The notes under the pieces are model-generated. The model was not told the origin of the DNA. It saw only the letters and a list, made by a program, of their open reading frames with translations, and searched no databases. This document shows, one piece after another, positions 40,451 to 61,883 of a stretch of DNA of 64,000 nt; the stretch's first letter is position 1, and each line of letters starts with the position of its first letter. The DNA lies in contig WJMJ01000079.1 of assembly GCA_014728035.1 (NCBI GenBank), positions 32,001 through 96,000 of the forward strand, read 5' to 3'. The position numbers and the translations under genes are program-made. Origin of the DNA: Promethearchaeota archaeon. GTDB taxonomy: Archaea > Asgardarchaeota > Thorarchaeia > Thorarchaeales > Thorarchaeaceae.

Positions 40451-40453
40451 AAA

Positions 40454-42729: not shown

Positions 42730-42779
42730 ATTATCCTCCGTACTTTCGAGAGAGAGTACTATTTTATATGGCGCCATAC

Positions 42780-43314
42780 ATTGAGTATATTACTTGCCTT
42801 TTGAATGAAGAAGTTTTAATATGCCTTAATGTATATTTTATAGAACTAATAGTTTTCCACGACAGCTTATATACGATTATATCAATTTATTACGAAAATT
42901 GGGCACTCATAATTTCATAATGTTGGTTACATTGCTAAATCATATACGGTTTTTCGTCAATTTTAGTCCAATTTTTTAAAAACAGTAATTCCCTAATTTG
43001 GATTTTCACTGATTATATTTTCAAATACGTGCTCTCAAACTACATAATTTGTTTATTGTAAATTGAAAATCAGATCGAAGCTTTTCATGGTTTCTTACAT
43101 TTCTTATGAAAAAGGTGCAATGAAATGGCAATGGCTATGATTAAAACGGACTAATAGCATAAATTAACGCCATTTAATTCTTTTTGAAGTCCATTTTACT
43201 GTTGTGGAGTTTTATGGAATCTATTTTGTAGATTTTGAGTGATTAAAACGTCGATAAAGCCATCACCCAAAATTGAAGATTTAATGAAACTAGTATTTTC
43301 ATGACGGTGAACAA
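42780..43314. promoter_or_regulatory. long AT-rich divergent regulatory region upstream of the 15-gene operon
   Basis: 535 bp without a credible ORF; direct repeat TGATTAAAACG x2; palindrome ATGAAA-N7-TTTCAT. Confidence 0.5.
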
Positions 43315-44070
43315 ATGATTGCAAAACTCGAAAGTCAGTTAACCCATATTTGCAATGATTCGGGTTACAGCTCGAAGATGATTGATGTAACATCAACACT
43401 TCAAATGATTTTCAATAATTCTGATAGGAGCATCATAAAGGCTCGCTTAAGATACGAAGGTCCTGATAATGACAGCTGGATTGTTGTTATTCTTGGATTG
43501 AGAAGCAGTATCCTTGAACCTTTCAACAAATTTACTCGGATCTCAAAAAATCAGTATCTTCCTTGTGATATATTTGGACTTGTTCCGTGTATTGCTCAAC
43601 TTGTGAGATTTGAATCATCAGGTCCATCTTTGAGTGCTGTTGCAAAAGATGATGTTACTAGAATCGTCTTGGTTTTTGAAGGCGACTCAAGTGCACGTTC
43701 TGGATGTATTAACTCCTTAGCAACTCGATTGTGGCGCTTTATGAAGCGCTGGGATGAGTGGACAAGTGTGCTGATGAATATTTTGGAAAAAGACCAGTAC
43801 ATTGGTGATTGGGATATCAATTGGCGAGAGCTTCTAGCAGGAGAATCGGGTTTTGTTACAATGCCATGGTTCTCACCACTACATTATGATGACCGTGTTC
43901 TTGCATTATCAAGAATTGTTATTTCATCAAAAGCACTTTTGACATCAGTTCTGAATGAACGACAGATGAGTGACCCTCTGATCAGGGGACTCATTAATTG
44001 GTTGGAAAATCTAGAACCTCTGTCACGTATCGTCAGTGCACCGTCAACTAATGAGGAGGTTGTGGTGTAG
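43315..44070 (+). CDS. hypothetical protein (operon gene 1)
   Basis: 251-aa ORF, GGTGA RBS. Confidence 0.75.
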   Translation: MIAKLESQLTHICNDSGYSSKMIDVTSTLQMIFNNSDRSIIKARLRYEGPDNDSWIVVILGLRSSILEPFNKFTRISKNQYLPCDIFGLVPCIAQLVRFESSGPSLSAVAKDDVTRIVLVFEGDSSARSGCINSLATRLWRFMKRWDEWTSVLMNILEKDQYIGDWDINWRELLAGESGFVTMPWFSPLHYDDRVLALSRIVISSKALLTSVLNERQMSDPLIRGLINWLENLEPLSRIVSAPSTNEEVVV

Positions 44071-44071
44071 T

Positions 44072-44539
44072 TTGTTAGTGAATGATCATTATAACTCATG
44101 TTGGTCTGGTGACATCGAATTACCGGATGTATCTTGGCTATCTGGTGCAAAAGCTGGATTGCAAATATCTGAAGGTAGAAGACCCGATTGGAACTGGGAT
44201 GAGTTTCTTTTAGATCTCGATGCGATGCTTCAGTATTTTAGTGATATTCAATCTGCGTTTCCTGGACAGGCACCATTGTTAGATGATGGTATTGTAGGTT
44301 CAATTCTTACCGCTCTCGGTGGTTATATCAGTGTTACCGGATATCTCCTTGATGATGGGTTATTCTTCAGGGTTTCTAAGAAATATCATGAAGATGTTAG
44401 AATTGCACTCTCAGGATATGATGTCCAACCTTATTGTGATGGGTTGATTATTTCTAAAACGGATCTGGCCAGACTTCAAAATATTTTGCCAATCCAAGGA
44501 CCGCTCTTTGAATTGATATACCAGGAGGTAATGACTTGA
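44072..44539 (+). CDS. hypothetical protein (operon gene 2)
   Basis: GAGGAGGT RBS then TTG/GTG just after the gene 1 stop; ends overlapping the radA start. Confidence 0.7.
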   Translation: MLVNDHYNSCWSGDIELPDVSWLSGAKAGLQISEGRRPDWNWDEFLLDLDAMLQYFSDIQSAFPGQAPLLDDGIVGSILTALGGYISVTGYLLDDGLFFRVSKKYHEDVRIALSGYDVQPYCDGLIISKTDLARLQNILPIQGPLFELIYQEVMT

Positions 44540-45600
44540 CTGATTTAGAAGCAGTAAGTGGTGTTGGTCCTGCAGCTGCAAAGAAATTGCGAGAAGCTTT
44601 TGTCACCACTGCCGAATTGCTAGCAGTTCAAAATCCTATTGAACTTCAAACAAAGACAAAGCTGGGAGAAGGTACTGTTGATAAAATCATCAAGAGTGCT
44701 AGAGAGCTTGTTGGCACTTTTGGGTTCAAGAGTGGTTTGGAAGTGGAACAATCGATGGCTGACCAGCCAAGATTGTCAACTGGTATCTCTAAACTCGATA
44801 AGGAATTATTGGGTGGAATAGAAGCGGGATCTATTGTAGAATTTTTTGGACCGTCACGAGGTGGAAAAACCCAATGGGTTGCACAACTTGCAATCATGGC
44901 TCAGCTTCCAGCTGACAAAGGGGGTCTTGATGGTAGAGTCCTATGGCTTGATAGTGAGTCATCTTTCAAACCTTGGATAATTAGAGCCAACGCTTTACGT
45001 TTTGGAGTTGATCCCGATGTAGCGCTTGGTAATATTGGAAGAGCTCAAATAATTCTTAGCAGTCAGCTTATGGATTTGTTTGACACCATACCTCGACTAT
45101 GCGCTGAGAATGACTACAAACTGGTCATTGTTGACTCTCTCACTGGATTATTTCGTGCTGAGTATACTGGTTTGGATATGCTGAAAGTTCGACAACAGGA
45201 TATGAATGGCATTCTAAATACCATGCGACGAACTGCTTCTGCAACTGAGAGTATTTTTGCTTACACAAATCATGTCATGGCAAAAATTTCCCTTTATGGT
45301 GGTAATCCCAATGCCCCAGTTGGCGGACACATAATATCCCATGCATCCGATTATCGATTCTATACTCGCAGGTCAAAGAAGGATAAGCGTAAATTGGATT
45401 TGCAGGATAATGCGGGAGTACCAGAATTCAGTATGGAATTCACAATTGGATGGGGCGGCTTTTACGAATCAAGCTCTGAAAAGAAAGAAGTTGAACCAGA
45501 GATTAAGGCTTACTTCAAGAAACATGGGTATGCAAAACCAGAATTAATTGAAGAAGACGAAACAGAAGAAGAAGTGGTTACTGCAGGTGATTCAGAATGA
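44536..45600 (+). CDS. radA: RadA/Rad51-family recombinase (divergent full-length paralog)
   Basis: N-terminal HhH (GVGPAAAKKL), FKSG, Walker A GPSRGGKT, LVIVDS, FRAEY, RQQ, GGHIISHAS. Confidence 0.9.
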   Translation: MTDLEAVSGVGPAAAKKLREAFVTTAELLAVQNPIELQTKTKLGEGTVDKIIKSARELVGTFGFKSGLEVEQSMADQPRLSTGISKLDKELLGGIEAGSIVEFFGPSRGGKTQWVAQLAIMAQLPADKGGLDGRVLWLDSESSFKPWIIRANALRFGVDPDVALGNIGRAQIILSSQLMDLFDTIPRLCAENDYKLVIVDSLTGLFRAEYTGLDMLKVRQQDMNGILNTMRRTASATESIFAYTNHVMAKISLYGGNPNAPVGGHIISHASDYRFYTRRSKKDKRKLDLQDNAGVPEFSMEFTIGWGGFYESSSEKKEVEPEIKAYFKKHGYAKPELIEEDETEEEVVTAGDSE

Positions 45601-46040
45601 AAATGGAACGAGGTATGTTTCGGATATATCGTTGTCCTCAATGCAACAACATAGGGTATGCACGAGTTGAATCTGAAGACGATCTTTCTGCATGTAGTCT
45701 TTGCAGAGGAATAATCTTGCATGAACAAGGCACACTCTACGCTCCAACGGTCCAGGAGTCGGTTGGGATAGTGCGAGAATTAGTTATTCTTTCAAAAGAT
45801 GAACGAGAACCTCTTAGGTCACCAAGAGGACGCGGTCTGCGCAAAAGAATTCTCCAAATCGTATCATCACTCACTGAACTCAATCGCGGAAGGCCTGTTA
45901 AACTGAAAGAGATACTCCAAGAGTGTGTCGATGCTGATATCGACCTGGAGCGGGCTTTATCATTTCTTGAAGTTCTTGAACAAGAAGGGATTCTCGATAA
46001 GCTCGATTCCAAAGTTATTCTGAAACGTGAGGTAATATAA
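45597..46040 (+). CDS. Zn-ribbon + winged-helix protein (MCM C-terminal WH-like)
   Basis: CPQC...CSLC, then ILQIV...PV.L.EIL......I..E.A...L..L..EG. Confidence 0.7.
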   Translation: MKMERGMFRIYRCPQCNNIGYARVESEDDLSACSLCRGIILHEQGTLYAPTVQESVGIVRELVILSKDEREPLRSPRGRGLRKRILQIVSSLTELNRGRPVKLKEILQECVDADIDLERALSFLEVLEQEGILDKLDSKVILKREVI

Positions 46041-46041
46041 A

Positions 46042-46677
46042 ATGGCAGAATCCAGCTCAAAGACAAAGTCAGATGTTATTTGGGTCCCGAGAACACCAAA
46101 GACAGTAAAACGTAGTTCTATGATAAATCTAGTTAATCTGCTCCTTAGAGAAACTACGCATAGAATCACTATTCTTGAAAAAACCGAAGAACCAGACCCA
46201 GAGTTATTTGTAGTAACTAGAATAGAGTGGAGAGATGCAGATATTCGAAAACCACTACTTCCACAATTACCACGATTGCTCTCGCTATTAGAAACCCTCA
46301 GAGGCACACGAGGTGTTCCTACAGAGATATATTTGGATAGTACTGATGGTATTGCGGTATATCTACCAACAAACGTAAGAATCTCTACTTTGCCCGAAAA
46401 ACCCAAAGAATGTGTTCACTATTTGATGGATCTAGTGGAAACTCAAATTGAACATACTTTTTCAACAATGAGAGAAGTGGAAAAATACTTCTGGATGAAT
46501 GCTAGGAAGAAGGGATTTAGCCCAGACATTGTTGCTAAAATTGACAAAAAAGAGAAATATTTTGATTCTTCAGAGCATGTATTTAGATTTCAATATCTTA
46601 TGCAGAGATATTTCTCAATAAGATTCAGAATTCATTCAAGTGAATCTTGTCTTCGTGTGGAGGCTGGTGGGTGTTAG
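46042..46677 (+). CDS. hypothetical protein (operon gene 5)
   Basis: 211-aa ORF with GAGGT RBS. Confidence 0.75.
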   Translation: MAESSSKTKSDVIWVPRTPKTVKRSSMINLVNLLLRETTHRITILEKTEEPDPELFVVTRIEWRDADIRKPLLPQLPRLLSLLETLRGTRGVPTEIYLDSTDGIAVYLPTNVRISTLPEKPKECVHYLMDLVETQIEHTFSTMREVEKYFWMNARKKGFSPDIVAKIDKKEKYFDSSEHVFRFQYLMQRYFSIRFRIHSSESCLRVEAGGC

Positions 46678-48641
46678 TAGATAAAGCTGACCCCCTTCTA
46701 TGGTTCCCTTATGAGCCAAGACCACATCAGGACAAGGCTGTGAAATTAGCTGCTGAAGTATATCGTTCAGGAACTGTTGGATTGCTGTCTGCGGATTGTG
46801 GTGTTGGTAAAACAATAGCAGTTCTATCTGGATATTTAGCTGCAAGGTCAGAGGATTCTACATCAAGATTATTCGCATTAACACGAACACATTCTCAATC
46901 AAAAGTCTTTGAAGAAGAGCTTGAGATTCTAAGAGAGCAATCACTGACCATTACAGCCACATCCATGGTATCAAGAATTCATGTATGTCCCATTAAAGCT
47001 AAGATGTCAACAAGCACTTCTAAGGGATTCACAAAAGCATGTGCAAGTATGGTTAGAATTGGCAGATGTAGTCATTATTGGAATATGTACAAAAAACAAA
47101 AAAACGAAGGAAAACTAACAATTCGGGAAAATATTCGTGTTCTTTTAGAAGAGCTTCTAGATACTGGTGTTGTAAGCCGGGAACGAGCTGAAGACTTTGC
47201 CCAACTACATTCTCTATGTCCATATGAGGTATTACGATGGTGTGCTCGAAATAGTCGTGTTATCATTGGTCCTTACAGCTATGTATTTCGTTCACGCGTT
47301 CGTGACGCATTACTTTCTTCTATGGGTGTTCAACTTCACGAAATAGATTTGTTAGTAGATGAAGCTCATAATCTGCCATCTCATGTTCTTGACTCTGAAA
47401 CTGCGCGGTTAAGTGGAGAAGATTTGAAGTATCTGAAGGAACATAGCAAAGAACTCACCAAAGAAACTGGAGTAAAGTGGATTAGTGAGGTTATTGATTT
47501 TCTTTGGGAAACTCTCATGGTTAACTTGGATTCTTTAGGTAATCGAAGAGAAAAGAGATTGAACAAATGGGATGTCATGCCCAGATTCATTGATCAAGAA
47601 AATCTATTTCTTCTAGTTCAATCTCATGACTTGACGATAGGAGATCCTGAAAATGCCTTACATGCAGAGAATCCATTTGATAGACTTGTTGATTTTCTCC
47701 TAATTGGTAGTAAAGCAATTGAAAGTGAAGATTGGCACGTGTCACTTAATCTCTCGAAGAATTGGCAAAATGAAAGGTCACCGTTGCATACTAATTTAGC
47801 TATACGCCCATTAAACGCAGCTGGATTGACCGCTCCCATACTTCGGGGAGCAAGATCTGCATTATTAATGAGTGGAACACTACGCCCTCTGGATCACTAC
47901 TCCCGTCTACTTGGAGTTTCGACTGCTTTGAAAGAAGACCTTGAAAGTCCATACCCCAAAGGAAGTAGATTGGTCCTTATCGATAAGAAACTATCAACAA
48001 AATATAAGAAAAGGAATTCCACACTTTGGCGGAAATTGGCTGAAAGAATTAATACCGTGCTTCAGACCATGCCCGCAAATAAGAGTGCTATGATAGCTTT
48101 TCCAAGCTATAATATGATGCATGAGATTTTGAGTTATTCTATAGACACTGGTTTCCGTGGGAAAATAATTGAAAACCGAGGAGCAAGACTTGAATTTGTT
48201 ATTGAGGCTATTGAAGATTCTCCTCAAGCTGTCTTTTGTGTATACGGTGGAAAGTTTAGCGAAGGTATTGATATTGTTAAAGATGGTTCAAGTCTAATTG
48301 ATTTGATAATTGGTGTTGGAATTCCTTTTAGTCCACCAACAAGCTATCATCAAGCTATTCAAGACTGGTATAACCGAAAATTCGGTGATGGTGCTGGATA
48401 TTATTATTCTTCTGTGGTACCTTCACTAAGACAGGTTGCCCAACTTATTGGTCGTTTAAGGAGGTCTCCTTCAGACTGGGGAGTTGTCACTCTCTTAGAT
48501 AATCGATTTTTGAGGTATTTGAGCATCCTTGGAGATGGTATTGTATCTGATATTTGGCCATATGATGAAGTTAACGAGATTCGTTCTGCTATAGACGCAT
48601 TTGTTGAAATGAGAGTAGGTGATTGTTGTGAGAATAGCTAA
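46671..48641 (+). CDS. XPD/Rad3/DinG-family Fe-S 5'-3' helicase
   Basis: FPYEPRPHQ, GVGKT, RTHSQ, four Fe-S Cys (VCP, KAC, RCS, LCPY), DEAHN, SGT, FPSY, GKFSEGID, QLIGRLRR. Confidence 0.93.
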   Translation: MLVDKADPLLWFPYEPRPHQDKAVKLAAEVYRSGTVGLLSADCGVGKTIAVLSGYLAARSEDSTSRLFALTRTHSQSKVFEEELEILREQSLTITATSMVSRIHVCPIKAKMSTSTSKGFTKACASMVRIGRCSHYWNMYKKQKNEGKLTIRENIRVLLEELLDTGVVSRERAEDFAQLHSLCPYEVLRWCARNSRVIIGPYSYVFRSRVRDALLSSMGVQLHEIDLLVDEAHNLPSHVLDSETARLSGEDLKYLKEHSKELTKETGVKWISEVIDFLWETLMVNLDSLGNRREKRLNKWDVMPRFIDQENLFLLVQSHDLTIGDPENALHAENPFDRLVDFLLIGSKAIESEDWHVSLNLSKNWQNERSPLHTNLAIRPLNAAGLTAPILRGARSALLMSGTLRPLDHYSRLLGVSTALKEDLESPYPKGSRLVLIDKKLSTKYKKRNSTLWRKLAERINTVLQTMPANKSAMIAFPSYNMMHEILSYSIDTGFRGKIIENRGARLEFVIEAIEDSPQAVFCVYGGKFSEGIDIVKDGSSLIDLIIGVGIPFSPPTSYHQAIQDWYNRKFGDGAGYYYSSVVPSLRQVAQLIGRLRRSPSDWGVVTLLDNRFLRYLSILGDGIVSDIWPYDEVNEIRSAIDAFVEMRVGDCCENS

Positions 48642-49221
48642 AGAGAATACATATCTACTGACATTCATCGGAGCTATCCTAGTTGGTTTTACTATTAGGA
48701 TGATTTTCTATGAATCGCCATTTGAAATTATTATTAGTATTCTAGGTATCTGTATAATGATTGGTTTCATTGTGCTTCTATGGACCCGTTCGAACCCACA
48801 AGTATTATGGAATAAAACTTACAAATGCTTGGCTATTAATCGTAAATTTAGTGTGTCGGTCTTTGCTGGATGTACATTGGATAGTGTACCTCTTGGAATT
48901 GATCTCAGTCACTCTGCAAAAAAGGTGCTACGTGCACTTTCAACAAGATTGAATGATGACAGTGAATTTGAGGTTAGTTTCTTTGTGACTCGACCAAATA
49001 ACTCCTCCAGTACCCGTGTAGGTTTATTTGTTTCACGTAAAACCATGCGTTTACTTGATGGGGTTTCTCGTTCTGATTCTCTTCTAGAACAAATCAATCA
49101 AGATGTGATGACATTGCAGTCTGCTTTGAAGACTGCTTATCCTCATACTCCAATATCTAGGGCTAGCGCTGAAGATTTGATACTTGCAACAAATGGAGGT
49201 GTACTTTCTCATGAAGTCTAA
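48628..49221 (+). CDS. membrane protein, 2 N-terminal TMs + cytoplasmic domain
   Basis: Hydrophobic hairpin at the N-terminus; overlapping start with GGTGA RBS. Confidence 0.7.
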   Translation: MRIAKENTYLLTFIGAILVGFTIRMIFYESPFEIIISILGICIMIGFIVLLWTRSNPQVLWNKTYKCLAINRKFSVSVFAGCTLDSVPLGIDLSHSAKKVLRALSTRLNDDSEFEVSFFVTRPNNSSSTRVGLFVSRKTMRLLDGVSRSDSLLEQINQDVMTLQSALKTAYPHTPISRASAEDLILATNGGVLSHEV

Positions 49222-49513
49222 GATTAGAACTTCTATACAAATTTCTAGAGAAGTATCGCCTAATGAATTAATGGAATTCTTGAGAGTCGGACATGGGTAT
49301 GAGTGGACAATTCTTCTCCAACATCCAAGATTGCTCGCTCATGGAAAACCACCATCAACAAGATTACCTGAGTTATTGATAACCGGATGGGATACTATGA
49401 TTGTATCTGGAGGTCTCAAAGAGTATCCTGATAGAATCAGAAATATGATTGAAGTGCTTCGCAGAAGGTCTCAACGGAGCTATTCATCAACTGGAGGGAT
49501 AATTCATGGGTAG
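49211..49513 (+). CDS. small hypothetical protein
   Basis: GGAGGT RBS, ATG 49211, overlaps both neighbours. Confidence 0.7.
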   Translation: MKSKIRTSIQISREVSPNELMEFLRVGHGYEWTILLQHPRLLAHGKPPSTRLPELLITGWDTMIVSGGLKEYPDRIRNMIEVLRRRSQRSYSSTGGIIHG

Positions 49514-51845: not shown

Positions 51846-54049
51846 CAACGGTGACAGAAACTCAACATCCAGTAGAAAAAATTCTTCAATCTATTGGGAT
51901 TATACCTCGAGGTGTCCAAGATGATGCAATTAATGCTGGAATACTTGAAGGAAAAAGTATCATGGTTTCAAGTCCAACCGGGTCAGGAAAAACCTTGGTC
52001 GGGGAGATAGCACTACTTAGAGCAACGTTGGACTCCAAAAAAGGACTTTATCTTGTTCCACTTCGAGCACTTGCTGTTCAAATTGCTAAGATATTGGATG
52101 AACGGTATGGTACTCAAGGTATTTCAATTGGTTTGAGTACTGGAGATTTTCACACGACAGGTGAAGAACTTTCATCATATGATATCATTGTAACAACTTA
52201 TGAGAGAGCTGATTCTTTACTTCGGAGAAATGCATCTTGGCTGCCATCACTTGGAACAGTTGTGATAGATGAGGTACAGACATTATCTGATAGTTATAGA
52301 GGAGCTAGATTAGAGTCTACAATAATTCGACTCAAACGATTGGTATCTGATTTGCAAATGATTGTATTATCAGCAACTATAGATGCACCAGAAGAAATAG
52401 CTGAGTGGTTGAATTGTGAATTAATTGTTTCTAATAAACGCCCAATACCACTTCATTGTAGAATCATTTCAACTAGCAACAAATCTGCGGCTATGAAGGA
52501 GATAGCTATGACTACTGTTCAGAGCAATGGGCAGTGTTTACTTTTCCATCGAACCCGTAGAGCAGCAGAATCTCAGGCTGTCAAACTTGCAGCTGAAGTT
52601 GGTCGTCAGTTCACAACTGAGGAAAAAAAGAATATTGATGCCGAATTGGAATCGGTAGTGAATTGGGATGTACGATTACCTGCTGATTTGAAAGCGCTCC
52701 TTCATGATGGTACTGCTTATCATCATGCAGGATTGGACTATCAAGCAAGACGCCTAATTGAAGAACTTTTCAAGAGAGGTATGATTAGGGTAATTTGTGC
52801 CACAACAACTTTGGCATCGGGTATTAACCTTCCAGCACGAACTGTTGTTCTTGCATCTGTTAGATCTCCCTCGAATCATAACACATTCTTATCTGGAAAT
52901 CAGATTCATCAGATGCTAGGAAGAGCTGGTCGTCCAGGATTTGATAACAGAGGAATCGGTGTTATTCTTGTTGGCAGTTCTGGAGAGGCTGATTTAGTTC
53001 GTCATAAATATTTCAAAACCATTACGGGAATTGATGGTAAAACAAAGGAGCTTCATCCAAAATATGATAGACTATCTAGTAAACTGAATCAGGCAAATGC
53101 TCTCACAGAGCAATTACTTGTGTCCTTTGACCTATACGGCTCCTCCACTATTGAAACTATTAAAAATGGTATTTTCTCCGAGTCCTTTTTGATGTTCTGT
53201 AGCGTTCGTGATACTAAATCTCCGCATCGTATATTACAACTTGGAGAGATTTCTGCAATTACCTCTATTGAACGTCATGCTTTACAAGATGCAATTCTAT
53301 CTGCCAGACAAAATGTTCTTGCATCAGTAAAACTTAGAGAGAAGACTGATTCCGTTATAGGAGGGATAGTAACTGTCTGGCAGGGTGGGAACTTCACATC
53401 AAGATTCTCAGCTAAATTATCACCAGATGGAACTGTGGAAGGTCCTATGTGTTCATGTGGCTCTCCATTGGATTCCTATGGAATCCTTTGTCCACATTTG
53501 GTAGCTTTAGGATTTGCTGCATCAAAAGAACTTGGAGCTATAGCAGATTATGTAATTCCTTTGGCACTATCAGAAACAAGTCCATTGGGGGTACTTACAA
53601 AATTATCCCTTGTTGAAGGTGGAGAGGATGGAGAATATATCATAACACATCTTGGAAGAGTTGTTAATCGACTCTATCTAAGCATCCCAACAATCCGAGA
53701 AATGATTGCTATCCTTCCATTCACTGAATCATCTGGAGACCTTCTCTGGTTATTGCGGCATCTTGTTGCGATTGAATCGGGTTCCACCTTAGATGAATCA
53801 TATGATAATCTGGTAGCTGGTGTAGCCAGCACTGACATTGAGGTTAGCAAACTTGCAGAGAATCTTGGATTACATGTGGGCGATGCATTTGGACTATTAG
53901 AAACCTCAAGATGGCTTCTTTCTGCAATTTCTGCCATAAGTGAAATTGGTGGATTTGAACAATTAACAACAAGATCGCTGGATCTATTAGAATCGCTAGA
54001 TCGAAGTCTTGGAAAAAAAAGTGAAAATATCCGGGAGAAAGAGAAATAA
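51842..54049 (+). CDS. Ski2/Hel308-like SF2 helicase with inserted SWIM zinc finger
   Basis: PTGSGKT, PLRALA, TTYE, DEVQ, SAT, YHHAGL, TTTLASGINLPA, QMLGRAGR; CSC-x10-CPH. Confidence 0.92.
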   Translation: MTTVTETQHPVEKILQSIGIIPRGVQDDAINAGILEGKSIMVSSPTGSGKTLVGEIALLRATLDSKKGLYLVPLRALAVQIAKILDERYGTQGISIGLSTGDFHTTGEELSSYDIIVTTYERADSLLRRNASWLPSLGTVVIDEVQTLSDSYRGARLESTIIRLKRLVSDLQMIVLSATIDAPEEIAEWLNCELIVSNKRPIPLHCRIISTSNKSAAMKEIAMTTVQSNGQCLLFHRTRRAAESQAVKLAAEVGRQFTTEEKKNIDAELESVVNWDVRLPADLKALLHDGTAYHHAGLDYQARRLIEELFKRGMIRVICATTTLASGINLPARTVVLASVRSPSNHNTFLSGNQIHQMLGRAGRPGFDNRGIGVILVGSSGEADLVRHKYFKTITGIDGKTKELHPKYDRLSSKLNQANALTEQLLVSFDLYGSSTIETIKNGIFSESFLMFCSVRDTKSPHRILQLGEISAITSIERHALQDAILSARQNVLASVKLREKTDSVIGGIVTVWQGGNFTSRFSAKLSPDGTVEGPMCSCGSPLDSYGILCPHLVALGFAASKELGAIADYVIPLALSETSPLGVLTKLSLVEGGEDGEYIITHLGRVVNRLYLSIPTIREMIAILPFTESSGDLLWLLRHLVAIESGSTLDESYDNLVAGVASTDIEVSKLAENLGLHVGDAFGLLETSRWLLSAISAISEIGGFEQLTTRSLDLLESLDRSLGKKSENIREKEK

Positions 54050-55608
54050 TGGCAATTTCAGATGAGAGAGAATCAAAAATTGTATCAACTGATACAACTG
54101 ATGAAATAGAAACAGAATATGATATTGTGAAAGCCCTAGAGGCAACTGGACACCTGACTCATACTTATGAAAATGGTTTGGTTCTTGGTGTACGACTGGA
54201 AGGTGTGAAAGGTACGCGTGGTGTACATTTGGATATAGTCCACATCCTTGACCTTAGGAAAGCAGAGTTTGGTAAAACTAGTTTAGCCATGCGGGCTGCA
54301 GTTTTAGAGAGTATGAATAGAGACCTCGAATCCATTCTTGAAGATGTTGACCTTCATACATTTTTGGATGCCCAGACGATCACTACTGCTTGGGGTCGAA
54401 TTCAGATTCCTCTTCTTGGGTCTGGAGACCATCCTTCCAAATCTATGATACACGAAACTCGAACGGTGTATGTCATTGTAAAGGATACAAAATCTTCAAA
54501 GGACTTTTCTTGGCTAACTGAATCCAAAAGGGTCGTTACCCCTGAAGAATTTGCCTTTTTACGTCTCACTGATACCAAGTCACTTAGAAGTGAATTGAAA
54601 AACCAAATCACCTCAGAAAAATGGAAGTTGCTTGAAAAGGGATTTAGGGATAGCTGGCTAGGAATCATATTTTCTTCAATAATATTACTTGGCATAGGAA
54701 CAATTGTTGGCATTCTTTTTGCCAATCAAGGAAATATGGCTGCTCCAATCATTTCAATTATTATTGGTTTGATGGTTGGAGGTGCATTCTTGAGTTCATC
54801 AAGGACAAGTCTTTCTGAATTTCGGAAGATAGTTTCAGAAGAGGAAAGAAAATTATCTGAAATGGGAGATAAAACAAGAATAGAGTTATCCGTACTTGAA
54901 AATCAAGATGACATGCGCCTCTTGGGCGATTTGAATTTCATAGTGTCTCCCTTAATGGCACAAGCTGCAAATGCTCTTTCGAGTGCTGAATATGATAATG
55001 CGGTCAGTTCGGTTTGTTCTGTGATGGATGAATGTATGCGTTTTTCACCGAGCGACCTAGATACAATAAAAAGTTCACTTGTTGGAGGTGATGAGGGATT
55101 GGCAAAATTTGTTGGGTTCTTTGCTGAGCTTGGGGCTGATGAATATGAGACTGATTTGGCATTGGCTTATGTAGCTTTAACTGGCTATGCAATCGACCCT
55201 ATTTCTGCTGAAGAAGTCATAACTCATATTGCAACCCTCAATAATGCCCTCTATCATATTGGAGCTTTGCGCCCAGATGTGAAGGAGATTATTGATGATT
55301 TATTGAATTCGCGTGCAGGGAAGGAAGCTGTAGAGTATTTAAACGAAGAGCTAAGTAAACCGTTAGAACCAATTCCCGATCCAGTAGAAATCGATGACGG
55401 TGAAAGCGAAGACCACTTGAAAGACACTTCAACCATTTCAAGTGAGATGGATTCATTAAAGGAGTTCATAACAGAATCGGAAGCAACGCAAGTTGAATCA
55501 GGTGAACCATTAGAAGATGTGGATTTAGATGACATATCAATGACAGGGTCTGATATCGTTTCCAGGATAAATATGGATATAACACCGGAGGATGAAGAAT
55601 CTGATTAG
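54049..55608 (+). CDS. membrane protein (central TM hairpin, coiled coil, acidic C-terminal tail)
   Basis: Two TMs around aa 203-250; D/E-rich C-terminus. Confidence 0.75.
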   Translation: MAISDERESKIVSTDTTDEIETEYDIVKALEATGHLTHTYENGLVLGVRLEGVKGTRGVHLDIVHILDLRKAEFGKTSLAMRAAVLESMNRDLESILEDVDLHTFLDAQTITTAWGRIQIPLLGSGDHPSKSMIHETRTVYVIVKDTKSSKDFSWLTESKRVVTPEEFAFLRLTDTKSLRSELKNQITSEKWKLLEKGFRDSWLGIIFSSIILLGIGTIVGILFANQGNMAAPIISIIIGLMVGGAFLSSSRTSLSEFRKIVSEEERKLSEMGDKTRIELSVLENQDDMRLLGDLNFIVSPLMAQAANALSSAEYDNAVSSVCSVMDECMRFSPSDLDTIKSSLVGGDEGLAKFVGFFAELGADEYETDLALAYVALTGYAIDPISAEEVITHIATLNNALYHIGALRPDVKEIIDDLLNSRAGKEAVEYLNEELSKPLEPIPDPVEIDDGESEDHLKDTSTISSEMDSLKEFITESEATQVESGEPLEDVDLDDISMTGSDIVSRINMDITPEDEESD

Positions 55609-56302
55609 TGTTTCACAAATATCAGAACTTGTTCTTTTTCCTGGTTTGATGCATATTTGGGGAAAAGCGGGTTCTGGAAAAACAAGCTTGGCAGTCGCTC
55701 TTGCTTCTTACGCGTCAAGAAAAGGGCCCGTAGAATGGATATGTACTGACGGGAAGAAGCTATTCCTTCCTCAATTGAAGAAGAATATCATACAGCAGAG
55801 GGGTAATATTGATACAGTCACTGTACAGATACCTCAATCCTACCATGAGAGCCAACAAGCGATTCTGAACCTAGTTGAAGATATATCTCCTCTTACAAAG
55901 TGTATTGTAATCGATTCGATAACTAGAGCCCTAGATATGAGTCATGATGAATCACAACTCTGGGGAAGAGAACTGATCGAAGAAGTATTACCAACCCTTG
56001 CAAGTTTAAGTTTAGCAAGAAGAATTCAAATTATCATTACTAGTGAGATACGAGAAATTCCAGACAGAGGACCAGTTCCAGTTCTACATGATGTTATTAA
56101 TCGCTGGTCTGATGTAGAACTTGCTGTCAGAAAATCAGTAAATCCAAGAGTTTCAGAGATTTTCCTCTATTCTTCTAATTCTCCAGAATTCAGTCTGATA
56201 GGTTCTATCTCACTGAATTCTAATCAAGTAGCATCACTTCATGATACAGATACCGAAAAAACAATTGGAGGACATAGTAGTGTTCAGCAAGGGACTGTTT
56301 AA
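55592..56302 (+). CDS. RadB/Rad51-paralog-like RecA-fold ATPase
   Basis: HIWGKAGSGKTSL, WICTD, CIVIDSI, ITSEIR. Confidence 0.82.
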   Translation: MKNLISVSQISELVLFPGLMHIWGKAGSGKTSLAVALASYASRKGPVEWICTDGKKLFLPQLKKNIIQQRGNIDTVTVQIPQSYHESQQAILNLVEDISPLTKCIVIDSITRALDMSHDESQLWGRELIEEVLPTLASLSLARRIQIIITSEIREIPDRGPVPVLHDVINRWSDVELAVRKSVNPRVSEIFLYSSNSPEFSLIGSISLNSNQVASLHDTDTEKTIGGHSSVQQGTV

Positions 56303-57245
56303 GCTTGTTGGAATTGGAATTACCATTGCTATTGCTTTACTCATTGGATCAAATATTATCACCTCGATTATAGCAATTGTCAGTGAAGCTAAAGCAGGTA
56401 ATCCTTTCCCCTTGATTTTGATTTACATATCCACAGTAGTGATTGTTGTTATCTCTCGTTTTTTCGATGACAAAGCTATAACTGGTGTTTTATTGCGAAT
56501 CAGTTCACTTATTGCAATCTCTTATTCTGGGATTTTGTCTTTCGTAATCGGAATTCCTTATGGGATAGCTATCTCTCTAACATTCTTTGCACTCACGACA
56601 CTGTTTTTCGCAGCGCTATATGACCCGTCTGAGATTAGGAGCTTTCTGAATTCTGATGAATATCTAAGCCAGTTAAGTAAAATTAGGAAATGGACTACAG
56701 GAGATTCTTATCAAAGTGCAGGGATTTCAACAACACTATTGAATCTACATAGGGTTCTACTAATTTCTCAAGATGATCGATCAAAAGTTATTAGCTTACT
56801 CAAGAGTCGGCCCTATTTGCCAATTTCACTCCACCATTTTGTGGATTGTGATGTTGTGATTCTATCTATCAATCCTGAAGAAACCAATCAAACATGTAGA
56901 ATCATCGCACTTTTCAAAGAACTGCAAATTGATTCAGCAAAAGAAGCTCCCAATCTTATGGCTGAAGCTATATTATCAATTCCTTTACTTGATGAGCAGA
57001 ATGGGATCATTAAGAGCGATTATAGAGTTGTAAAGTCCGAATCATCGGTTCAAAATCTGCTTGAAACGTTTCCTATACGAATGATAGTCATTGGGCATCC
57101 TGAAGGATTGCAAGTTCTCCTTCCAGAACATGAAATTCTTGGTGTTGACTCTCAACCACTTCCAGCGGGTCATGAAAATGAGATTTTACTAATGCATAAT
57201 TTTCAATCGATACGGGAGGTATCAAAAAATGCGAATATCACTTAG
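56280..57245 (+). CDS. membrane protein, 4 N-terminal TMs + cytoplasmic domain
   Basis: GGAGG RBS + GTG at 56280; four hydrophobic helices. Confidence 0.72.
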   Translation: MFSKGLFKLVGIGITIAIALLIGSNIITSIIAIVSEAKAGNPFPLILIYISTVVIVVISRFFDDKAITGVLLRISSLIAISYSGILSFVIGIPYGIAISLTFFALTTLFFAALYDPSEIRSFLNSDEYLSQLSKIRKWTTGDSYQSAGISTTLLNLHRVLLISQDDRSKVISLLKSRPYLPISLHHFVDCDVVILSINPEETNQTCRIIALFKELQIDSAKEAPNLMAEAILSIPLLDEQNGIIKSDYRVVKSESSVQNLLETFPIRMIVIGHPEGLQVLLPEHEILGVDSQPLPAGHENEILLMHNFQSIREVSKNANIT

Positions 57246-57945
57246 TGCTTTTGATGTTGATGATATAGAAAATCCAATAATTCGTCTTTATCCGGAGGTC
57301 CTTCATCGTTCTGTAGGTCGATTGTTACTTCCTGGACAAATCAGTTTGTTGTACGGTGAAACTAAAGCACCTCTTACTCGATTGGCACATTTTATTACTT
57401 GTTCTATCGCAGAGAAACATCAAGTGCTATTTCTTGATTCGAGCAATAATTATAATGCCTCTCTTGTTAAACGGTATTTAGAAAGATTTCAGAATCGTAG
57501 AGATGTTCTAGAAAACATTCTAGTAGGAAAAGTGCTCTCTCTTTCTGATTTAGTTAATCTAACTGAACAAGTAGATGAGATTCAGAATCTGCGCTGTATT
57601 GTCCTTGATAGTTTAAGTGGAGTATTGAATCTTAGTGGCTCTCCTGGTGCCATCGAGCGACAGAGATTTCTTTTCAAAACTCTTCACGTTATGAGAAAGC
57701 TAGTCAATTTAACAGACATTCATTTTGTATCTACGAGTTATTCAACTCAAGATTGGGATACTGGAGAAAGAAGGCCTATAGGAGGTAATGTTCTAGCTCA
57801 TAATCTGGATTCTATTCTTCGAGTTAATATTATTGATGAGAAAAAGAAAATTTTGCAAATAGAAATCGAGCGCAGCTCAATGCCCACTAATCATGATATT
57901 TTTGCTCTGAAAAGCTCAATATCTGGATTTAGAACTATTTCGTGA
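57229..57945 (+). CDS. RecA-fold Rad51-paralog-like protein, Walker A degenerate
   Basis: PGQISLLYGETKAPLT, FLDS, IVLDSLS, ERQR, PIGGNVLAH. Confidence 0.8.
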   Translation: MRISLSAFDVDDIENPIIRLYPEVLHRSVGRLLLPGQISLLYGETKAPLTRLAHFITCSIAEKHQVLFLDSSNNYNASLVKRYLERFQNRRDVLENILVGKVLSLSDLVNLTEQVDEIQNLRCIVLDSLSGVLNLSGSPGAIERQRFLFKTLHVMRKLVNLTDIHFVSTSYSTQDWDTGERRPIGGNVLAHNLDSILRVNIIDEKKKILQIEIERSSMPTNHDIFALKSSISGFRTIS

Positions 57946-57955
57946 TGGTGATTCC

Positions 57956-58945
57956 ATGGGTGTAAAGGGTTGGAATTTTATTCCTTGGCGATGGGTTGAA
58001 CTTGATGAAATCATTCAAGGCCCGATTGCCATAGATGTACCAAATTATTTGACTCGTAGATTAACTGTATTCAGATCTCAAAGAATACAAAATGGAAGAA
58101 TTCCTCTTCAGCATGTGAGTGTGATTTTGAGCATCATCAAATCCGCATTGGCACACAAAATAACACCTCTATTTCTTTTTGATGGCCCTCCTGAATCGCT
58201 GAAACGAAAACCTAACCCCTCACTCTTGATCGAAGCTCAAAATTTGTACAAGGAGTTTCGAAAAACCAATGATGCGTTTGATGATTCGATTTCTGAACGT
58301 CTCTATAATAGTCCTGCTATTAGAATGTATTTTGTTATGGAACATACAAAGGATATTGCGTCTTATTGTGGAATTCCTGTAATTAGGTCTCCAAGTGAAG
58401 CAGAACTTTTTGGTGCATTACTCTGCAAACAAAAATTAGCTACCACAGTTGTCTCAAATGATGTTGATGCATTACTATTTGGAAGTCATCATGTAACCAA
58501 ACAATTGCAATTTTCAAAAGAAATGATTCATCGAACAACAATTAGTGATTTGAAAGATGTCTTGAACCTTAACCTTTCACAACTCAGAGATTTAGCTATA
58601 CTATGTGGGTGTGATTTCTACCCTTCTGGACTGAAAGGAATTGGACCAAGAAAAGGTGCTGCTTTACTCAATCGTCATGGGAATCTCTCTAACGTATTAG
58701 ATTCACAAGGAATTTATGGTGTTGAGAAAGAGGATATGATTCGAGCACGTGAAGTTTTCGACGAAGCTAGTTACCTCTCAATTCATGGAGTTAATACTTC
58801 TCTGCGCCCTCCATTAGTTTCAAAATTGGAAAACATTTTGCATCCTGTTCTTGGTTCAGATCGAGCCAACACGTGGGCTTATGAAATGGTATCATTATGG
58901 AAAAGGTTCAGAGTGAAGCAGGCAACATTAGATAAATGGATTTGA
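57956..58945 (+). CDS. fen: FEN1/XPG-family structure-specific nuclease with PIP box
   Basis: MGV, IAID, FDG, EAE, NDVDALLFG, GCDF, GIGP, C-terminal KQATLDKWI. Confidence 0.88.
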   Translation: MGVKGWNFIPWRWVELDEIIQGPIAIDVPNYLTRRLTVFRSQRIQNGRIPLQHVSVILSIIKSALAHKITPLFLFDGPPESLKRKPNPSLLIEAQNLYKEFRKTNDAFDDSISERLYNSPAIRMYFVMEHTKDIASYCGIPVIRSPSEAELFGALLCKQKLATTVVSNDVDALLFGSHHVTKQLQFSKEMIHRTTISDLKDVLNLNLSQLRDLAILCGCDFYPSGLKGIGPRKGAALLNRHGNLSNVLDSQGIYGVEKEDMIRAREVFDEASYLSIHGVNTSLRPPLVSKLENILHPVLGSDRANTWAYEMVSLWKRFRVKQATLDKWI

Positions 58946-61286: not shown

Positions 61287-61883
61287 GTGCAAATGGATAT
61301 AATGGTAATAGTCACATCATCATTTCTCTTTGCTTTTCAGATCACACCTCTTGTCGTCTTAGTAGCTACTGCGATTCGAAGTGTGATTCTTCTGACAGGT
61401 AGGAGAAGAGCATTTGTGACCTGGACCAGAAACTCTCTGCTTTCTGCGATATCCATTATTTTTGCACCAGGAATGATAATCAATACTGGAGTAAGATATG
61501 GAATCTGTTCTTTATTTGGTATTGATATGGATGGATTTGGTGCAAACAGTACCTATGCTGAGCTTAACCTCTTCCTTCGTGTTGAACGGCCACCAAGAGT
61601 ATTGGTTTTGGTCACAGCCCTTTTCATAAGTACCGTACTCTCAGTATTCCTTGGGTTCATTTTGATTGTGTTGCCAATGGTTATTATTATTGGAGCACCT
61701 GTTGTCTTAGTCTGTTGGTATATTGCGGTCTGCATATTGTTTAACACTTCAATTCGTGGAGGAGATGTCACTCTACTAGGAGCAGCCCTCAAGGGGCAGC
61801 CCGGAAGAGGTATAGCTGAATTAATCCTCTCTATTTCAATCATCGTTTTTCTTTACATTGCACTAAGTGGGGTGATAGCGTGA
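61287..61883 (+). CDS. hypothetical multi-TM membrane protein
   Basis: ~5 hydrophobic helices. Confidence 0.7.
   Translation: MQMDIMVIVTSSFLFAFQITPLVVLVATAIRSVILLTGRRRAFVTWTRNSLLSAISIIFAPGMIINTGVRYGICSLFGIDMDGFGANSTYAELNLFLRVERPPRVLVLVTALFISTVLSVFLGFILIVLPMVIIIGAPVVLVCWYIAVCILFNTSIRGGDVTLLGAALKGQPGRGIAELILSISIIVFLYIALSGVIA

Follow-up and report, generated by a model that had tools for sequence, protein, structure and literature searches.

The locus lies on contig WJMJ01000079.1 of a Promethearchaeota archaeon (GCA_014728035.1), of which we analysed a window of 64,000 nt (positions 32,001-96,000 of the forward strand). ORF calling in this 64-kb window revealed 15 ORFs between positions 43315 and 58945, all on the plus strand (g01~g15, Table 1), just as the initial annotation had described them: co-oriented and either overlapping or at most 10 bp apart. 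The genes are translationally coupled and co-conserved, with spacings from g01 to g15 of -35, -4, -4, +1, -31, -23, -38, -8, -4, -1, -17, -62, -17 and +10 nt. The intergenic region upstream of g01 is presumed to be the promoter region of the operon. A GGTGA Shine-Dalgarno-like motif sits ~8 nt 5' of the g01 ATG and recurs ahead of the first gene in most orthologous loci; no operator motif upstream of g01 was found to be conserved across genera. The GC content of the operon equals that of its surroundings, and no tRNA, integrase, relaxase, capsid gene or defence hallmark was found at the locus. The operon of the source genome is flanked by a 31-nt direct repeat whose exact core is 20 nt long; this repeat is missing from the relatives examined.

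Table 1. Features of the locus, in positions of the 64,000-nt window.
Feature	Position	Strand	Characteristics and evidence
Upstream intergenic region	42778..43314	.	537 bp, AT-rich, between divergent GH3-like gene and g01
g01, 251 aa, soluble	43315..44070	+	orthologs in 13 loci, median identity 41%
g02, about 150-167 aa, soluble	44036..44539	+	orthologs in 11 loci, median identity 33%
g03, RadA paralog, full-length	44536..45600	+	HhH N-domain, RecA core, acidic tail
g04, Zn ribbon + probable MCM-like winged helix	45597..46040	+	Cys pattern, weak profile matches
g05, 211 aa, well-conserved alpha/beta protein	46042..46677	+	median identity 52%
g06, XPD/Rad3-family Fe-S helicase paralog	46647..48641	+	DEAD_2, HBB, Helicase_C_2
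g07, N-terminal 2-TM hairpin + 140-aa soluble domain	48619..49221	+	TM scan
g08, 109 aa	49184..49513	+	orthologs in 10 loci, median identity 39%
g09, 779 aa	49506..51845	+	2-TM hairpin ~41-82, N-domain, VirB4/HerA-fold P-loop domain, C-terminal winged-helix-like domain
g10, Hel308-like Ski2-family helicase	51842..54049	+	DEAD + Helicase_C; SWIM zinc finger in divergent C-terminal half
g11, 519 aa	54049..55608	+	200-aa N-domain, central 2-TM hairpin, C-domain, strongly acidic tail
g12, RadB-like RecA-family ATPase	55592..56302	+	TIGR02237 41 bits, E 1e-10
g13, 4-TM N-terminal domain + 200-aa soluble domain	56241..57245	+	TM scan
g14, RecA/Rad51-fold paralog	57229..57945	+	Rad51 37 bits; Walker A absent from all orthologs
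g15, FEN1/XPG-family nuclease paralog	57956..58945	+	XPG_N + XPG_I; PIP-like C-terminus
Convergent protein, 683 aa, soluble	58955..61006	-	no Pfam match, no TM segment
5-TM membrane protein, 198 aa	61287..61883	+	TM scan; downstream on operon strand
Giant surface protein, 2657 aa	61926..64000 (window end; gene continues)	+	full gene L057:927-8900

Profile, motif and structure evidence bore out the gene identities proposed beforehand (RadA, Zn-ribbon/winged-helix protein, XPD, VirB4/HerA, Hel308-SWIM, RadB, inactive RecA and FEN1). Catalytic motifs are intact in g03, g06, g10, g12 and g15; Walker A is gone from g14, and the Walker A lysine from g09. The RadA paralog g03 matches Rad51 (180 bits) and HHH_5 in Pfam, yet falls below the cut-offs of NF003301 (255.9 vs 259) and TIGR02236 (237 vs 361). 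It keeps Walker A GPxRGGKT, Walker B, L1 RQQ and L2 in 15 orthologs and is predicted to be active. Phylogenetic analysis placed g03 in a clade of its own (96/99) outside the canonical Asgard RadA clade, in agreement with its earlier designation as a divergent RadA. The helicase g06, with its four Fe-S cysteines, GKT and DEAH conserved, is likewise a predicted active enzyme, scoring 172 bits on TIGR00604 (cut-off 247) compared to 311 bits for the canonical XPD copy on C25. For g10, NF002654 covers the core alone and reaches 335 bits where the cut-off is 887; motifs I and II and the SWIM pattern CxC..CxH are conserved, other Asgard families included, and activity is again predicted. Of the two smaller RecA-family proteins, g12 retains Walker A GxxGSGKT and Walker B hhhhD in 13 orthologs, whereas GxxRxPLT replaces GxxxxGKT in 12 orthologs of g14, with hhhhDS retained; judged by its sequence, g14 is a conserved inactive RecA paralog. 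The nuclease g15 scores 118 bits on TIGR03674 (cut-off 352), has M. jannaschii FEN-1 as its top PDB match (E 4e-26), and conserves all seven carboxylates together with a C-terminal QxTLxxW[ILF]; it should be active as well. In g04, C13, C16, C33 and C36 are invariant, and weak profile matches to the Mcm7 C-terminal winged helix (E 0.01), the MCM winged helix (E 0.18) and Zn-ribbon proteins suggest that it probably contains an MCM-like winged helix.

Four other proteins belong to no recognisable family. Neither Pfam nor PADLOC yielded a match for g01, g02 or g08, and the profile of g01 has no PDB match; the start codon of g02 is uncertain because its orthologs have 147-158 aa. For g05, 179 database homologs were retrieved; the 120 listed ones are mostly from Thorarchaeota and are all named 'hypothetical protein'. 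Its AF2 model is confident (pLDDT 83.8, pTM 0.75), with no recognisable fold relative (best Foldseek E 0.39, best VIA-wide Z 4.8). Altogether, profile, Foldseek and structure comparisons assigned no fold or function to six or seven of the operon proteins, and PADLOC models matched none of its nine family-less or membrane proteins.

A TM scan of g07, g11 and g13 confirmed the two-TM, acidic two-TM and four-TM proteins of the initial annotation. In the four membrane proteins (g07, g09, g11 and g13) the numbers of TM segments are even and conserved, indicating that the soluble domains all face one side; external loops are nearly absent. Despite having no Pfam match, g09 gave an AF2 model (pLDDT 78.9) that resembles TrwK/VirB4 (E 3e-13) and HerA (E 6e-12) in Foldseek. 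Structure comparison using VIA revealed that it is closest to VirB4 (4ag6), with a Z of 28.4 and an RMSD of 2.6 over 321 aa, followed by DndH-C (Z 25.6), HerA (25.5), TrwB (22) and FtsK (15); the HerA platforms of Sir2-HerA and DUF4297-HerA, and DndH, are among its structural relatives. The predicted structure of g09 thus displays the VirB4/HerA ring-ATPase fold. At its P-loop site, however, stands GG[ST]xx[ED]R, with R334 invariant in a 41-sequence alignment that includes one f2 homolog, and the variant loop also occurs in homologs of Asgard families f8, f12, f15 and f19. Since the Walker A lysine is absent from every g09 homolog examined, in any Asgard family, g09 cannot, from its P-loop sequence, hydrolyse ATP by the usual mechanism and cannot be a motor. 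The invariance of the variant P-loop arginine and glycines points to selection rather than decay. For the TM-anchored degenerate HerA/VirB4 ATPase of the initial annotation, the fold and the anchor stand; a role as the motor does not.

The soluble domain of g07 matches L039_357 (E 1e-5), which in turn matches positions 54-262 of g09 (E 2e-13); direct hhalign of g07 against g09 was not significant. We consider g07 a probable paralog of the g09 N-terminal module. The acidic tail of g11 has 30 D/E and 4 K/R in its last 90 aa. No relative of g11 was found in Pfam, PDB or Atlas; it has a homolog in a second family (hhalign 88%, E 3e-6). The fastest-evolving gene of the operon is g13 (median identity 27%), whose profile has no PDB relative apart from a chance TM match. 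No VirB6/CedA-like polytopic channel, VirB2-like pilin, DNA receptor or DprA/ComEC-like part was recognised among the operon proteins; the DNA uptake at the membrane put forward in the initial annotation stays a conjecture.

Thirteen other genomes, spread over at least 12 genera of a single Thorarchaeota family, show the identical 15-gene order at identities of 23-87%, which argues against a chance layout. Membrane and enzyme genes are co-conserved across these genera, which supports the earlier reading, and in every locus examined the membrane genes are intact, interleaved and overlapping with the enzyme genes. The chromosomal flanks are syntenic across genera, and the operon is chromosomal and vertically inherited; together with the lack of an integrase, relaxase or tRNA, this speaks against a provirus or ICE, also in accord with that reading. 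Of the 36 family genomes with at least 90% completeness, 7 yielded no operon, indicating that it is dispensable or variably assembled, and it is patchy inside genera. Housekeeping RadA, XPD, RadB and FEN1 genes lie at other sites of the source genome, so that the expectation of separate canonical loci holds for these four. For Hel308 it does not: g10 itself is the best Hel308 match in the source assembly, where no second one was found; the sister genome and other relatives carry a further Hel308-like gene, of 757 aa. Seven further DUF87-type genes lie elsewhere in the source genome. Beyond this family, a second one has a reduced operon in which g05 is present, and simpler loci, in which a Hel308-like helicase accompanies a g09-type pseudo-ATPase, were seen in at least seven Asgard families. 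In other Asgard families one grouping keeps returning: a Hel308-SWIM helicase and a g09-like protein with a RecA-family gene, a TM partner and a large extracytoplasmic protein. One Asgard variant locus carries a PLD-family nuclease.

The limits first drawn for the operon enclose the 15 genes, apart from the doubtful g02 start, but the conserved neighbourhood runs beyond 58945 and takes in the 5-TM and giant surface proteins. Homologs of the convergent 683-aa protein directly follow the FEN-like gene in nine loci and are absent in G012 and G025; it is a conserved neighbour of uncertain membership. The 5-TM gene follows the operon in eight of the nine loci that reach far enough and abuts the g11 homolog in G025; it was not found in four operon-negative genomes of at least 90% completeness, and is possibly part of the system. 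The giant protein has an N-terminal signal/TM segment, a C-terminal TM anchor, and alpha/alpha-toroid, Big_1, Big_3_5, Filamin and MG2-like domains. Its homologs follow the 5-TM gene in G001, G007, G012 and G025. The two genes together adjoin the operon in G025 and, like the operon itself, were not found in operon-negative genomes; the giant protein may belong to the system too, synteny and co-absence being the sole basis for linking this surface-protein module to the operon.

These observations confirm the operon seen in the initial annotation and support its interpretation in part. They suggest a hitherto undescribed machine for DNA handling at the membrane, and no published description of such an operon was found in the literature searched, consistent with the claim that no system of this composition had been described. 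Here extra, divergent recombination enzymes are joined to membrane proteins around an ATP-dead VirB4/HerA-type protein, in archaeal relatives of eukaryotes. As our leading, still tentative explanation, with somewhat less than an even chance, we propose a recombination machine on the inner side of the cell membrane, most likely acting on DNA from another cell. In this model, g09, probably ring-shaped, and its paralog-like partner g07 would form a membrane-anchored platform rather than a motor; g11 and g13 may serve as tethers for the Hel308-like helicase and for the RadB-like and RecA-like proteins. DNA would be unwound or pulled by the XPD-like (5'-3') and Hel308-like (3'-5') helicases, g12 and g14 would be the mediators, loading the specialised RadA g03 for strand exchange, and the FEN-like nuclease would trim flaps on PCNA. 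An outward-facing part, for example for cell contact or DNA capture, might come from the 5-TM protein together with the giant surface protein and its Ig domains. We count in its favour the gene coupling, the co-conserved TM hairpins, the fold and P-loop of g09, the intact enzyme motifs, the separate housekeeping copies, the RadA clade, the wider Asgard pattern, the downstream module and the Ced/Ted precedent. Against it count the lack of a recognised channel, pilin or receptor, the near absence of external parts, the ATP-dead VirB4-like protein, the tie to the surface module by synteny and co-absence only, the genomes in which the operon was not found, and the fold-less proteins.

A serious competitor, possible though on the unlikely side, is a machine tethered to the membrane that acts on the cell's own DNA, serving repair, restart or resolution of membrane-held chromosomes without any import; examples are gene conversion between chromosome copies, fork or termination processing, and segregation-linked resolution. 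The one-sided soluble domains with hardly anything exposed outside, the missing channel and pilin, and the vertical inheritance with conserved flanks all fit it. So do the PCNA-binding motif kept by the FEN-like nuclease, which suggests replication-type transactions, and the layout of g09, which resembles FtsK motors in its membrane anchor, ring domain and C-terminal winged helix. However, g09 is not a motor, housekeeping RadA, XPD, RadB and FEN1 are already present, several fairly complete relatives yielded no operon, and the conserved adjacent 5-TM and giant surface proteins are left unexplained.

Defence systems such as Zorya and those based on HerA couple a membrane or ring platform to effectors that degrade DNA. 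A comparable defence against viruses or plasmids, in which invading DNA is sensed or intercepted at the membrane and destroyed or neutralised by the helicases and the nuclease, appears improbable. Matches of g10 to HamB-type helicase models of Hachiman (E 4e-39) and to BrxH models, the kinship of g09 to defence platforms and DndH, the PLD-family nuclease of the variant locus and the within-genus patchiness lend it some support. But g10 scores 335 bits on Hel308 models versus 132 on HamB, PADLOC is silent on the family-less and membrane proteins, and HamA, Sir2 and DUF4297 effectors are absent. A strand-exchange recombinase, its two mediator-like paralogs and a flap nuclease on PCNA make up a toolkit for repair, not killing, and order, flanks and divergence track the family with no island-like turnover. 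Least probable by our estimate, and a poor candidate, is a housekeeping repair super-operon with passenger membrane genes, or a domesticated conjugative or viral remnant without concerted function: the catalytically dead VirB4-like protein, the bracketing repeat and the many family-less proteins would suit it, but the membrane genes are interleaved and intact in every locus, the invariant P-loop residues reflect selection, integrase, relaxase and capsid genes and tRNAs are lacking, synteny of the flanks extends across genera, the repeat is missing from relatives, and the GC content is that of the surroundings.

Among known systems, Ced of Sulfolobales and Ted of Thermoproteales are chromosomal DNA-import systems derived from domesticated type IV secretion, and Ted loci have VirB4-like genes co-localised with HerA and Rad50 (PMC9905601). 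The operon shares with them chromosomal genes, a membrane-anchored VirB4/HerA-superfamily protein, small TM partners and, with Ted, proximity to homologous-recombination genes. In Ced, which also includes CedD and CedE (PMC11868833, PMC11823120), the VirB4 N-domain is split over CedB and CedD (PMC11868833), much as the corresponding module is probably split between, or duplicated in, g07 and g09. The operon differs in having no recognised VirB2-like pilin or 6-7-TM VirB6/CedA-like channel, in the lysine-less Walker A of its VirB4-like protein, in its Asgard lineage, and in the RadA paralog, two RecA-family partners, two helicases and FEN-like nuclease of the same transcription unit. Sequence-level homology to Ced or Ted proteins was not detected; with neither channel nor pilin recognised and a non-motor VirB4-like protein, the analogy is one of resemblance, not membership. 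Archaeal HerA-NurA/Mre11-Rad50 operons similarly encode a HerA-superfamily ring-fold protein (g09 has a Z of 25.5 to S. solfataricus HerA) with a nuclease and recombination partners, whereas g09 is TM-anchored, catalytically dead and structurally closest to VirB4, and NurA, Mre11 and Rad50 are not in the Thorarchaeota operon.

Bacterial natural transformation employs the ComEC channel, the helicase-like ATPase ComFA, DprA, RecA and RadA/ComM. Under the favoured model, the likeness would lie in a membrane-associated zinc-finger helicase-type motor, a mediator-loaded recombinase and branch-processing helicases acting on incoming DNA. As no ComEC, DprA or ComFA homology was detected and the operon has no competence pilus genes, the resemblance would be functional analogy only. 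In an Asgard host, the operon also recalls the eukaryotic set of HELQ, RAD51-paralog complexes (BCDX2, Shu), XPD-family helicases of the RTEL1/FANCJ type and the nucleases FEN1, EXO1 and GEN1. The likeness is one of families, the RadA tree including no eukaryotic sequences; Rad51 and Dmc1 fall outside all sampled Asgard RadA paralogs (PMC12722695). Both sets contain a Hel308/HELQ helicase, an Fe-S XPD-family helicase, an XPG-family nuclease with a PCNA motif, and a recombinase with ATPase-competent and ATPase-dead RecA-fold paralogs, but in Thorarchaeota this cast is encoded in one operon, interleaved with membrane proteins.

The operon comprises 15 forward-strand ORFs (g01-g15), in which neighbouring genes share 1-62 nt or stand 1 or 10 nt apart, and its GC content equals that of the surroundings. 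On the upstream side, a 537-bp AT-rich gap adjoins a divergent GH3-like gene; apart from an SD-like GGTGA, the regions 5' of the operon share no motif among genera. The source assembly spans 4.33 Mb with a completeness of 97.9% and a contamination of 8.5%, and the genomes compared are metagenome bins. A look-up of sequencing runs covering 44536-54049 returned no entry, whether of RNA or of DNA. All 15 genes are found in the same order in 13 other genomes from at least 12 genera of the family, with the upstream GH3-like gene and the downstream genes being syntenic too, which bears out the conserved order that the initial annotation had put forward for checking. The median identity is 63% for RadA and 57% for XPD, 37-39% for g07, g09, g11 and g14, and 27% for g13. 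Nearly all database relatives of the operon proteins are named "hypothetical protein" of Candidatus Thorarchaeota.

A profile of g09 detected full-length orthologs in 52 of the 76 family genomes, including 29 of the 36 that are at least 90% complete. In four operon-negative genomes g05 or the XPD paralog is missing as well, and the 5-TM gene that follows the operon is missing from four; as these genes are absent together with g09, the whole block is either dispensable or variably assembled. The conserved flanks, the absence of any tRNA from the window, and the absence of integrase domains from the operon and its flanks, where no relaxase Pfam domain was found either, rule out a mobile element (ICE or provirus). 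The operon is inherited vertically as part of the chromosome and is not a mobile island.

Two side features of the flanks deserve description. The entire operon lies between two copies of an imperfect direct repeat of 31 nt that has an exact core of 20 nt. No further copy exists in the genome, and both are in frame and encode LQRIYD[DE][PS]DC; being missing in relatives and in frame within conserved genes, the repeat is ruled out as an att site. In addition, genes for an Rce1-like CAAX protease and a 7-TM protein, located upstream of the GH3-like gene, seem to have no link to the operon.

Positions of the operon, its neighbours and related genes elsewhere (window coordinates unless a contig or extracted locus is named)
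Feature	Position	Strand	Remark
Operon g01-g15	43315-58945	+	15 ORFs
CAAX protease and 7-TM protein genes	39524-41113		upstream of the GH3-like gene
Direct repeat, first copy	42468-42498		inside the GH3-like gene
Direct repeat, second copy	58978-59008		at the 3' end of the 683-aa gene
Soluble protein, 683 aa	58955-61006	-	convergent to the operon; no Pfam family
5-TM protein	61287-61883		after the 683-aa gene
Surface protein, 2657 aa	61926-64000, on to L057:927-8900		preceded by the 5-TM protein
Housekeeping XPD	4085-6106 of L044 (G000:C25:44000-52000)	-	
Housekeeping RadB	2531-3235 of L044 (G000:C25:44000-52000)	-	
Hel308-like helicase, 757 aa	G001:C2:409340-410506		

Profile analysis of the recombination and repair enzymes revealed that g03 is a full-length RadA paralog with an HHH_5 N-domain, scoring 180 bits against Pfam Rad51 compared to 316 bits for canonical RadA. 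It falls below the NCBIfam RadA cut-offs (255.9 vs 259 for NF003301 and 237 vs 361 for TIGR02236), and its Walker A, Walker B, L1 arginine and L2 loop are kept in 15 orthologs. In a maximum-likelihood phylogeny, a single long-branched clade (96/99) unites the operon RadAs and falls outside that of the canonical Asgard RadAs (93/88). The phylogeny places this clade neither with nor apart from the RadA paralogs encoded beside g09-like genes in another family. The operon protein g03 is a RadA paralog, not the housekeeping RadA. The following protein g04 has four invariant zinc-ribbon cysteines and weak matches to MCM-type winged helices. The helicase g06 conserves the four Fe-S cysteines, GKT and DEAH, and scores 172 bits against TIGR00604 (cut-off 247), compared to 311 bits for canonical XPD; judged from its sequence, it belongs to the XPD/Rad3 family as a predicted divergent paralog.

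The second helicase, g10, is matched by Hel308 models in its helicase core alone (NF002654, 335 bits over positions 28-409 of 739, cut-off 887; NF040935, 285 bits, cut-off 1200), with no full-length Hel308/Hjm match that includes the C-terminal domains. Its C-terminal half carries a SWIM motif, CxC..CxH, conserved even in other Asgard families. The two further RecA-fold proteins are a RadB-like ATPase with an intact Walker A (g12) and a Rad51-fold protein whose Walker A is lost in every ortholog (g14). The FEN1/XPG-family protein g15 keeps seven active-site carboxylates and a conserved terminal PIP-like QxTLxxW[ILF]; it scores 118 bits against TIGR03674 (cut-off 352) and has a shorter arch region than canonical FEN1.

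Canonical RadA is encoded on the same contig, 60 kb upstream of the operon, and the genome also possesses canonical FEN1, as well as canonical XPD adjoining a RadB on contig C25. The separate canonical radA, xpd and fen loci that the initial annotation proposed to confirm were thus found, and the operon copies of RadA, XPD, RadB and FEN1 are extra paralogs. This did not hold for hel308: no gene of this assembly matches Hel308 better than g10, which therefore cannot be read as a spare copy here. Another Hel308-like gene, encoding 757 aa with 38-40% identity over the core, occurs in the sister genome and in several relatives, some carrying the operon and others lacking it, and was not found in a search of the whole source genome.

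Less than 1 kb separates the housekeeping XPD and RadB genes, which recalls, on a smaller scale, how XPD is paired with RecA paralogs in the operon. Two genomes of another Asgard family, f19 (loci L046 and L050 in G060; L045 and L051 in G083), harbor two canonical RadA genes of ~330-340 bits each, in addition to the RadA paralog next to the g09-like gene and a RadB. The two canonical genes are consistent with the two RadA clades described in some Asgard lineages, among which Thorarchaeota are not mentioned (PMC12722695).

The central membrane protein g09 has no Pfam match, and its sequence profile found only marginal HerA matches (E 0.02) against PDB sequences. Transmembrane segments were predicted by a hydropathy scan, and two operon proteins were folded. 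The AlphaFold2 model of g09, built from 41 homologs (pLDDT 78.9), superposes through residues 286-659 on the ring NTPases of the FtsK-HerA superfamily. It is most similar to the VirB4 C-terminal domain (PDB 4ag6), with a Z-score of 28.4 and an RMSD of 2.6 Å over 321 residues, followed by DndH-C (Z 25.6), Sulfolobus solfataricus HerA (Z 25.5), TrwB (Z 22) and FtsK (Z 15). Foldseek also retrieved TrwK/VirB4 (E 3e-13), the full-length protein being aligned from model residue 100 on. The layout of a TM hairpin, an N-domain, the ring domain and a C-terminal winged-helix-like domain resembles VirB3-VirB4 fusions and FtsK. At the P-loop site, g09 has GG[ST]xx[ED]R, of which the arginine and glycines are invariant in an alignment of 41 sequences from Thorarchaeota plus one homolog of family f2. 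The same variant loop is found in shorter homologs of four more Asgard families (f8, f12, f15 and f19), and GK[ST] is absent from every homolog examined. This pattern of residues marks g09 as a putative conserved pseudo-ATPase, not a decaying gene.

Conserved hydrophobic hairpins are predicted in four operon proteins, with two TM segments each in g07, g09 and g11 and four in g13; given these even counts, the soluble parts all lie on one side of the membrane. Both g07 and g09 match one TM-plus-domain protein encoded upstream of g09-like genes in another Asgard family, which suggests that g07 is probably a duplicate of the g09 N-terminal module; a direct hhalign comparison of g07 with g09 was not significant. 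The sole polytopic protein, g13, retrieved no VirB6-type PDB chain with its sequence profile, its only match being a chance TM one, and profile searches against PDB sequences returned nothing for g01, g05 and g11.

No Pfam or PADLOC family was assigned to g01, g02, g05, g08, g11 or g13, and hhalign comparison of the family-less domains all against all yielded nothing significant. The g05 protein folds confidently yet matches no known structure, and a permissive Pfam scan of all 14 g05 orthologs gave no recurrent family. Weak but recurrent matches to type-III-secretion-chaperone-like structures (Z 3.6-4.6; Foldseek, VIA-wide) were treated as a common alpha/beta arrangement. The ESM Atlas models of g05 and g11 are poor (pLDDT 0.42 and 0.43) and offered no usable neighbours. 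A 632-aa hairpin protein of family f19 was considered as a g11 counterpart, but the hhalign comparison was not significant, leaving an architectural analogue only. Altogether, the operon defines a conserved family of VirB4/HerA-fold pseudo-ATPases and about seven families without known relatives.

Beyond the convergent gene lies a surface module. Its giant protein has an N-terminal signal/TM segment, a C-terminal TM anchor, and prenyltransferase-like alpha/alpha-toroid, Big_1, Big_3_5, Filamin and MG2-like domains. Together with the 5-TM protein, it follows the operon in eight of the nine loci that reach far enough. Based on this synteny and on co-absence, the pair could supply the outward-facing part missing from the operon. 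The intervening 683-aa gene directly follows the FEN-like gene in nine loci and is absent in two; the C-terminal part of its product looks helix-turn-helix-like by eye.

Search of other Asgard genomes revealed an 11-gene version with the gene order kept in a second family of the same order (G025), consisting of two unknowns, RadA, Zn/WH, g05, XPD, two small proteins, g09, Hel308 and a g11 homolog. Here the operon is directly abutted on the same strand by genes for a 5-TM protein and for a surface protein exceeding 2000 aa. In five further families (f8, f12, f15, f19 and f9), shorter g09-like proteins adjoin a Hel308-SWIM-like helicase, extending this pairing to at least seven Asgard families. 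Such neighbourhoods usually include a RecA-family gene and a TM partner as well, together with a large extracytoplasmic protein that is M28-peptidase-like or else a fusion of ~1260 aa. As simpler g09/Hel308 loci recur in other Asgard families, the Thorarchaeota operon appears to have been elaborated from an older Asgard module.

Three of the simpler loci (L038 in G060, L039 in G065 and L042 in G177) contain the g09-like pseudo-ATPase and the Hel308-SWIM-like helicase along with a RadA paralog or RadB-like gene and TM partners. Their large proteins are either M28-peptidase-like, with 888-1016 aa, or a fusion of 1263 aa; a PLD-family nuclease is additionally encoded in one locus, and an HhH protein of 705 aa in another.

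We propose, tentatively, that the machine encoded by the operon acts on DNA from another cell. A membrane platform based on g09, with g07, g11 and g13, would hold a pair of helicases with opposite polarities, a specialised recombinase served by one active and one inactive RecA-fold mediator, and a PCNA-linked flap nuclease. Four points favour this reading: the scaffold is of the VirB4 type, a surface protein is linked to the operon, the housekeeping enzymes are encoded separately, and Ced and Ted set a precedent in which DNA-import genes are co-localised with recombination genes. The main alternative, a membrane-tethered pathway serving the cell's own chromosomes, is favoured by the lack of a recognisable channel or pilin and by the near absence of external loops; we consider it rather unlikely, if worth serious attention. 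A role in defence is improbable, as it fits the data worse than either DNA exchange or an own-chromosome pathway: g10 matches HamB models of Hachiman through the shared Ski2 core alone, at 132 bits, far below its Hel308 score, and in PADLOC none of nine other operon proteins matched any model, with neither HamB plus HamA nor a complete system being found. That the operon is a passenger or remnant fits the data less well than the same two readings and is very improbable.

With less assurance than it has for the operon, the proposal of DNA exchange might be extended to Asgard archaea as a group, which would then carry an apparatus that exchanges and recombines DNA on contact. A VirB4-like pseudo-ATPase platform anchored in the membrane would form its ancient core together with a Hel308-SWIM helicase, a specialised RadA-family recombinase and a large surface protein. 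In Thorarchaeota this core would have been elaborated to 15 genes, including Rad51-paralog-like mediators, a helicase of the XPD family and a FEN/GEN-like nuclease. If the proposed role of the operon is true, it would be the first dedicated archaeal recombination pathway physically tied to the membrane. The operon provides a concrete gene set for testing DNA exchange among Asgard cells, and, in the lineage nearest eukaryotes, bears on the origin of specialised recombination, including meiotic recombination and thus the origin of sex.

Full-text literature searches found no description of the operon. Ced and Ted, the DNA-import systems derived from type IV secretion in Sulfolobales and Thermoproteales, come closest among described systems. 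The initial annotation had likened the operon to Ced. Its VirB4-type fold and chromosomal, recombination-linked context stood up to comparison, g09 sharing the membrane-associated VirB4/CedB-like fold with an N-terminal TM hairpin, whereas the catalytic ATPase did not, since g09 lacks the Walker A motif GxxxxGK[ST]. Compared to the 6-7 TM channel of the VirB6/CedA/TedA type, g13 has only four TM segments, and no such channel was recognised in the operon. Nor does the operon encode a small two-helix secreted protein corresponding to the VirB2-like pilin (CedA1/TedC); in g07, the hairpin of two TM segments is joined to a soluble domain of 140 aa. Because the ATPase is not catalytic, and pilin and VirB6-like channel were not recognised, the operon is not a member of Ced/Ted. 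At the family level, it resembles the cast of HELQ, RAD51 paralogs, XPD-family helicases and XPG-family nucleases in eukaryotes, as its families are those controlling eukaryotic recombination: a recombinase with active and inactive RecA-fold paralogs, a HELQ-type helicase, an Fe-S XPD-family helicase and an XPG-family nuclease.
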